From Escherichia phage vB_EcoP_EP32B, in the sequence record OR544955: DNA of 64,000 nucleotides; one strand, written 5' to 3'. The notes below the pieces were generated by a model, which did no database searches, was not told the DNA's origin, and saw only the letters and a program-made list of their open reading frames with translations. A program made the translations under genes and the position numbers. Positions 5,357 through 6,196 of this stretch are shown here, one piece after another. Positions within the stretch are counted from its first letter, which is position 1. Every line of letters starts with the position of its first letter.

Positions 5357-6196
5357 AACAATACCAATACCTGATTAAAGATATCTTAGAAAATGGCTAC
5401 GAAACAGACGACCGTACAGGTACCGGCACTATTGCCCTGTTCGGAACTAAATTACGTTGGGACCTGACTAAAGGATTCCCTGCAGTAACAACTAAGAAAT
5501 TAGCATGGAAAGCTTGTATTGCCGAGTTACTGTGGTTCATGTCTGGTTCTACCAATGTTAATGATTTGCGTATTCGTACTCATGGTAGTCTTATTCAAGG
5601 TAAAACTATTTGGGACGACAACTATGAAAATCAGGCAAAAGACCTTGGATATCATAGCGGCGAACTTGGTCCTATTTATGGTAAGCAATGGCGTGATTTC
5701 GGTGGTGTAGACCAATTAATTGAAACAATCGACCGTATTAAAAAATTACCAACTGATCGTCGTCAAATTGTTTCTGCCTGGAATCCGGCCGAAATAAATC
5801 AAATGGCTCTTCCTCCTTGCCATATGTTCTATCAGTTCAATGTGCGTAATGGTCATCTTGATTTATGTTGATGTTTTCTTGGGTCTGCCATTCAACATTG
5901 CCTCGTACGCTGCCTTGACTCATATTGTAGCTAAGATGTGTAACCTTATCCCAGGTGATTTAGTGTTCTCAGGCGGCAACACGCATATCTACAGCAATCA
6001 TGTAGAACAATGCAAAGAAGTTCTTCGTCGTGAACCTAAAGAGTTATGTTCTCTTGAAATTAATTGGCCTAGTAATTTTGAGAATTGGCCTACAAAAATC
6101 CAAATGGACTGGGTTACCGGAACGATGACATATTCTGATTTCGTTCTTAAAAATTACGAATCACACCCAACTATCAAAGCTAAAATGGCGGTATAA
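5353..6196 (+). pseudogene. td: Thymidylate synthase gene, intronless, broken by a frameshifting deletion near 5865/5866
   Basis: ORF 5353..5871 ends ...LPPCHMFYQFNVRNGHLDLC*; ORF 5840..6196 in another frame continues VDVFLGLPFNIASY...KAKMAV. Conserved QWYQRS-type segment between them is missing (about 17 nt). Confidence 0.85.

Follow-up and report, generated by a model that had tools for sequence, protein, structure and literature searches.

The td gene (thymidylate synthase) of Escherichia phage vB_EcoP_EP32B (record OR544955) is written, in the 64,000-nt stretch of DNA analysed here (the window), as two abutting reading frames, and the bases missing between them lie where the homing endonuclease I-TevI would cut an intronless td allele. 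Does this gap record imprecise repair after I-TevI cleavage, or is it one more of the small deletions found in other genes of the same record? The initial annotation, made from the sequence alone, had left both readings standing.

The td locus and its 17-nt gap

The window is a segment of a Mosigvirus (RB69-like T-even) genome that runs from gene 34 through rnh, gene 32, frd, td, nrdAB and the ligase gene to the genes for baseplate, head and tail. Colinearity with E. coli O157 typing phage 3 (KP869101 / NC_041863) holds from base 1, at 98.3% identity in aligned columns, and a look-up with Frd returned relatives that were 96-97% identical. The whole td locus (5353-6196, + strand) has frd and nrdA as its neighbours and is an ordinary intronless Mosigvirus td with a 17-nt gap. 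Both the list of open reading frames and Pfam (Thymidylat_synt, PF00303) divided it into two pieces. The 5' piece (5353..5871, + strand) encodes 171 authentic residues and ends in ...NVRNGHLDLC and a stop, the last Cys and the stop being out of frame; it matches profile positions 1-162 (E=9e-56). The reading frame restarts at 5867, shifted by +1 with respect to the 5' piece, and this 3' piece (5867..6196, + strand; VDVFLGLPFNIASY...KMAV and a stop) matches profile positions 170-266 (E=6e-31). The intact thymidylate synthase of KP869101 covers positions 1-266 of the profile, whereas the window td gave no full-length PF00303 match in a single frame.

Alignment to the KP869101 td and to the T4 td, the latter spliced explicitly at nt 549 before alignment, revealed a single gap at 5865..5866 (+ strand), where 17 nt corresponding to td nt 514-530 are gone. 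The missing bases read CAATGGTACCAGAGAAG in KP869101 and comprise the codons for QWYQRS. The junction shows 0 nt of homology in either direction, so that the placement of the gap is unambiguous. The last base of T4 td exon 1 is nt 549 (...TTCTTGGGT/TAATTGAGG, with the slash at the insertion site), and its equivalent in the window is 5884..5885 (+ strand; CTTGGGT/CT); the gap therefore spans positions -36 to -20 from the T4 intron insertion site. No intron was found in the window td, the exon sequence being unbroken across 5884/5885. These results agree with the initial annotation: it had described an intronless, frameshifted td whose two ORFs abut at ...GHLDL with QWYQRS missing, and had placed the junction at 5865/5866, 19 nt upstream of 5884/5885. 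Its coordinates and distances proved exact, and the loss, which it had put at about 17 nt, is exactly 17 nt. I-TevI cleaves intronless td upstream of the insertion site, at -23 and -25, with a preference for 5'-CNNNG-3' (T4 mobile-DNA review, PMC2988022), and the alignment against intron-plus and intron-minus td alleles confirmed that the gap lies over this cleavage site, with both cut positions inside the missing stretch as had been proposed.

A 171-nt query across the junction covered 188 nt in the best-matching phage records (40 listed), which shows that the 17 nt are present in those records. The junction sequence itself had no exact match in IMG/VR, GTDB genomes or JGI metagenomes, and exact-protein look-ups with the truncated td fragment and with NrdA returned no match. 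Leaving the gap aside, the window td is 98.2-98.4% identical to that of KP869101 at the nucleotide level; over the 5' piece, 505 of 513 nt are the same as in KP869101 and 508 of 513 as in exon 1 of phage AV115. The Arg and Ser of the QWYQRS motif touch the dUMP phosphate in thymidylate synthases, and the loss of this motif together with the frameshift means that the td product as written would be inactive. Rescue by recoding (frameshift or bypass) was considered and rejected, since the QWYQRS bases are absent and conserved residues cannot be restored in that way. We also observed that AV115-like and KP869101-like variants alternate at very short range along td 5353-6196 (for example at nt 111 vs 114, 550 vs 552 and 828 vs 831), which could represent either fine-scale natural recombination or a mixed-strain consensus.

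Fifteen gaps and their surroundings

Set against KP869101, the window has 15 deletions, between 15 and 321 nt long, while its insertions do not exceed 3 nt; all 15 missing stretches are kept in three independent relatives, KP869101, ST0 and vB_EcoM-172859UKE1 (UKE1). The other reading offered in the initial annotation, that td is another instance of a small-deletion pattern seen in five further genes, was upheld and had to be widened, for there are 15 deletions rather than 6 and together they carry the signature of an assembly artefact. On the + strand, gene 32, encoding the essential ssDNA-binding protein, has lost 68 nt (3572..3573) and 214 nt (3837..3838; identity among relatives 0.75 inside and 0.95 in the flanks), which together cut gp32 at residue 62 of 300. 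Upstream of frd, 321 nt are missing over two small ORFs (4761..4762, + strand; identity inside 0.61-0.63). Beyond td, and likewise on the + strand, a frameshifting loss of 79 nt in nrdB (9356..9357; nrdB nt 510-588) leads to a stop at residue 174 of 392, and 58 nt are missing, again with a frameshift, from the ORF equivalent to KP869101 12810-13166, which we labelled pseT.3-like (12128..12129). A gap of 247 nt takes the 3' end of rIII and the adjoining spacer (17951..17952), and a frameshifting one of 34 nt lies in a small hypothetical ORF (20197..20198). The DNA ligase gene (gp30) has lost 73 nt (22124..22125), so that its frame is shifted to a stop at residue 113 of 498, and the small ORF after it 102 nt in frame (23289..23290). 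The last two gaps on this strand are an in-frame loss of 15 nt near the 3' end of alt (25447..25448) and a frameshifting loss of 50 nt in the ORF after uvsY (33840..33841). On the - strand, frameshifting gaps of 34 nt in the major capsid gene 23 (42448..42449; identity inside 0.62-0.71) and of 28 nt in the prohead protease gene 21 (44235..44236) bring stops at residue 186 of 521 and residue 74 of 214, respectively, and 36 nt are missing in frame from a neck protein gene that we labelled gp14 (53224..53225; identity 0.64-0.69 inside and 0.98 in the flanks). Eleven of the 15 gaps fall in the first 27 kb (early genes) and four in the other 37 kb (structural genes), an excess consistent with more mosaic variation in the early region.

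Only 4 of the 15 gap lengths are divisible by 3, and gp32, gp30, gp23, gp21, nrdB and td are all frameshifted. Genes 32, 30 (ligase), 23 and 21 are essential in T4, and a T-even phage with such lesions in them could not form plaques; the genome as written is therefore not viable. Junction homology is 0 nt at 12 of the 15 gaps, td among them, whereas for random deletions of the same lengths some homology (at least 1 nt) is expected at about 6.9 junctions (P(<=3) = 0.04). The gap lengths fit an exponential distribution with a mean of 92 nt (KS p=0.81). When ST0 and UKE1 were compared with KP869101, indels were found in both directions, whereas the window shows losses only. Inspection of the deleted stretches disclosed no apparent common motif, GC bias (GC 0.24-0.48) or spacing periodicity.

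The rest of the sequence bears a very different mark and looks like that of an accurately called genome under effective selection. Among the coding mismatches to KP869101, 864 of 1042 fall at codon position 3, and 863 of the 1015 differing codons (85%) are synonymous. None of the other CDSs (about 70) carries a nonsense or frameshift change, and every indel of 1-6 nt is either intergenic or in frame. Lesions blind to selection thus stand against purifying selection elsewhere, which separates the differences into two classes with two origins.

The gaps also coincide with patches that vary among other phages. Mean KP869101-ST0 identity in the 15 deleted stretches was 0.78, compared to 0.964 in random segments of the same lengths, and none of 20,000 permutations reached 0.78; for KP869101 and UKE1 the corresponding values were 0.82 and 0.967. 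At td, identity among relatives is 0.76 in the patch and 0.91-0.95 in its flanks, the patch being TATCAACGCAG in ST0, UKE1 and AV115 and TACCAGAGAAG in KP869101. Four gaps (12128, 22124, 25447 and 44235) are placed in sequence that shows no great variation among the three relatives compared. Moreover, divergence of the window from KP869101 is capped: it never exceeds 9 mismatches per 50 nt and no 50-nt segment is at >=20% divergence, whereas in natural Mosigvirus pairs that diverge by 2.5-3% overall the maximum is 23-31 mismatches per 50 nt and about 880-2080 segments pass that threshold. The divergent tail of the distribution is absent exactly at the gap positions, and part of the lack of highly divergent patches could reflect genuine closeness to KP869101. 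Finally, base 1 of the window aligns to base 1 of KP869101, an arbitrary record start inside the long-tail-fibre gene 34, part of which occupies window 1-1028 (- strand) with the same start base as in KP869101/NC_041863. This common start suggests that KP869101/NC_041863 was the template on which the source record was assembled or to which it was rotated.

Some other features of the window deserve mention in their own right. Relative to ST0 the hoc region (36966-37431) shows many 10-31-nt indels, but it keeps its colinearity with KP869101, hoc being hypervariable in this group of phages. Between genes 24 and 23, and in the opposite orientation to them, is an 89-aa ORF (41101-41370, + strand); the antisense segD of T4 has the corresponding position. 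This ORF gave a sub-threshold match to Pfam DUF4859 (E=0.004), and no endonuclease domain was recognised in it. A gene for DAHP synthase (aroF-like) at 15456-16448, an auxiliary metabolic gene already annotated in relatives, lies beside a gene (16448-17029) that is called ribD in the KP869101 annotation and deaminase or dCMP deaminase in ST0 and UKE1.

Origin of the gaps

Taken together, the evidence makes it very probable that the td gap is an assembly artefact, one of 15 divergent stretches lost from the record, and not a biological lesion. The genome would have been assembled on, or ordered against, KP869101 / NC_041863, and reads or short contigs from patches too unlike this reference, or differing between co-assembled strains, would have been left unplaced. 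Reference positions without coverage may then have been omitted from the consensus and closed without N; we infer such a base-removing step in the pipeline from the form of the gaps. What was lost from td would be the QWYQRS codon run, which is rich in wobble positions (Tyr, Gln) and in six-fold-degenerate residues (Arg, Ser). Few places in the Mosigvirus td are as polymorphic as these codons, which also hold the CNNNG motif of I-TevI; with the motif inside the polymorphic run, the overlap with the cut site would be incidental. The real phage is predicted to carry an intact, intronless, in-frame td. Four marks expected of such an artefact are found in the record: a start in common with the reference, lesions that ignore selection, loss without gain, and overlap with divergent patches together with capped divergence. 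At td itself, one observation argues against it, as a true patch like that of ST0 or AV115 would show just 4 differences from KP869101 in 17 positions, and elsewhere the window tolerates up to 6 mismatches per 20 nt with KP869101. Since 4 of 17 lies within the tolerated divergence, dropout of the td patch would need either a true sequence further from KP869101 or some other cause. The true patch may be more divergent than the ST0-like version; with T4-like CGC TCA for Arg-Ser, for instance, it would differ from KP869101 at 7 of 17 positions (our own count on the spliced-T4 alignment).

Two other explanations that cover all the gaps at once were weighed against this one. With about 4x data, stretches left uncovered by chance could have been dropped from a reference-based consensus, an artefact unrelated to divergence. 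The exponential gap lengths are what Lander-Waterman theory predicts for this case, and the start in common with the reference and the absence of insertions fit it equally well, but random gaps account neither for the placement in hypervariable patches, which none of the permutations reproduced, nor for the capped local divergence, and we regard this explanation as unlikely. The deletions might instead be real and belong to a defective genome, that is, non-viable or helper-dependent molecules or a decaying relic under no selection, as their indifference to reading frame and gene essentiality would allow. Decay, however, also yields 1-2-nt frameshifts and nonsense changes, of which the other CDSs have none, and the substitutions are under strong purifying selection. 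In addition, insertions are absent, the junctions do not show the short direct repeats typical of deletions by replication slippage or recombination, and there is no biological reason why real deletions should favour patches that are variable in other phages. Because the T-even life cycle is strictly lytic, a relic would have nowhere to persist. A defective genome is accordingly very unlikely.

There remains the explanation particular to td. A co-infecting intron-plus T-even phage could have supplied I-TevI, and ends cut at -23/-25 could have been resected and misjoined with a loss of 17 nt, leaving a td-minus phage that grows on a thyA+ host. On such hosts td is dispensable in T4. The gap does hold both cut positions, and in the intact relatives a CNNNG motif is preserved at this place: CAGAG in KP869101 and CAACG in ST0, UKE1, AV115 and a 74-kb metagenomic contig (L009; ERZ27233475 k141_86221). 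The window itself has no I-TevI gene, and intron-plus Mosigvirus relatives with an I-TevI homolog at that very site exist (L009 and AV115), which makes exposure of this lineage to I-TevI plausible, and exon 1 of AV115 is the closest match to the 5' half of the window td (99.0%). Against this, normal homology-directed repair would install the intron, and td nt 534-597 are KP869101-like and not intron-donor-like, indicating that there is no co-conversion tract from an intron donor. Illegitimate repair of double-strand breaks in T4 joins ends at microhomologies (PMC2988022), and the td junction has none. Fourteen lesions of identical type, several of them lethal and in essential genes, occur elsewhere and follow hypervariable sequence. 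The nrdB gap (nt 510-588) lies off the T4 nrdB intron site (about nt 664) and also off the MobE nick region, which is 5', near the recombination point within the first 189 nt of T2 nrdB. For 15 random deletions with these lengths, the chance of one covering -25..-23 is 0.02, but the estimate was made post hoc and is too low, because the deletions favour variable patches, of which the td patch is one. The imprecise-repair footprint of I-TevI put forward in the initial annotation is thus not borne out, and we consider such a scar extremely unlikely. No more credit can be given to a mixed case in which the td deletion alone is real and the other gaps are artefacts, with an I-TevI cut followed by homology-independent end joining producing a td-minus allele devoid of the preferred motif in a Mosigvirus exposed to intron-plus relatives. 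If true, this would be a case, rarely met in the field, of a phage that evades a homing endonuclease through destruction of the gene that the enzyme targets, and a real scar would offer a case of natural imprecise repair at a homing site, bearing on how phages resist or pay for selfish introns.

Two variants were tried and rejected. In one, the real phage would be intron-plus and its intron would have been lost on an intronless reference; td nt 534-597, however, match KP869101 and not AV115, and the resulting gap should have its centre at the insertion site, not 19 nt upstream of it. In the other, several gaps would be scars of different T4 nucleases (gene 32/SegG, nrdB/MobE or I-TevIII, td/I-TevI), with which the position of the nrdB gap away from both mapped sites is at odds. 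We know of no nuclease that could be held responsible for the lethal gaps in gp23, gp21 and gp30.

Comparison with homing systems and reference-guided assemblies

Nothing in the td gap calls for new biology. As it stands, the record is unfit for inferring pseudogenes, gene loss or nuclease footprints, given that at least 11 genes, including those for the capsid protein, the protease, the ligase and the ssDNA-binding protein, appear broken only through lost divergent patches. Records of this kind can be flagged without reads by deletions that no insertions balance, by deletions that disregard the reading frame, by gaps that overlap hypervariable patches, by divergence that is capped and by a start in common with a reference.

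The thymidylate synthase of KP869101 (AKE45048.1) aligns end to end with the T4 enzyme (PDB 1TIS, E=5e-165), and it is from these intact proteins that the window td differs in lacking QWYQRS and in its shifted frame. Compared to the intronless T4 td homing site recognised by the GIY-YIG enzyme I-TevI, the window keeps TTCTTGGGT/CT at 5884/5885, and its missing bases cover -23/-25 and the CNNNG motif. It departs from the I-TevI td homing system in lacking the intron, the I-TevI gene, a co-conversion tract and microhomology at the junction, and in a lesion type that is not site-specific.

The closest intron-plus counterparts, AV115 (OR352945) and L009, share with the window the gene order frd-td-DUF5496-nrdA. 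Both of them, however, have kept the 17 nt and carry at td nt 549 a 1016-nt group I intron with an I-TevI homolog, and the window has neither the intron nor the 17 nt. L009 is Mosigvirus-like; its Frd is identical to that of the window and its td intron is 90% identical to that of T4. In addition, the genes for gp33 and gp59 are separated in L009 by a 227-aa ORF that has an I-TevI DNA-binding domain, adjoining the place of T4 segG (between genes 59 and 32); the features noted in this contig lie within 834-1517 and 4585-6461. AV115 is an isolated Mosigvirus; its region 2501-5344 holds an intron-split td with a homing endonuclease, and a second annotated homing endonuclease directly upstream of nrdA. 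The exon bases flanking the AV115 td intron are unlike those of T4 (CTTAGGT/TAATTTAGG).

The window also resembles reference-guided or reference-scaffolded assemblies whose uncovered or unplaced stretches were closed without Ns. It differs from them in that some of its gaps sit in sequence that is not notably variable among the relatives compared, and it is like them in its start, in showing deletions only, in its blindness to reading frame and essentiality, in the concentration of gaps in divergent patches and in its capped divergence.
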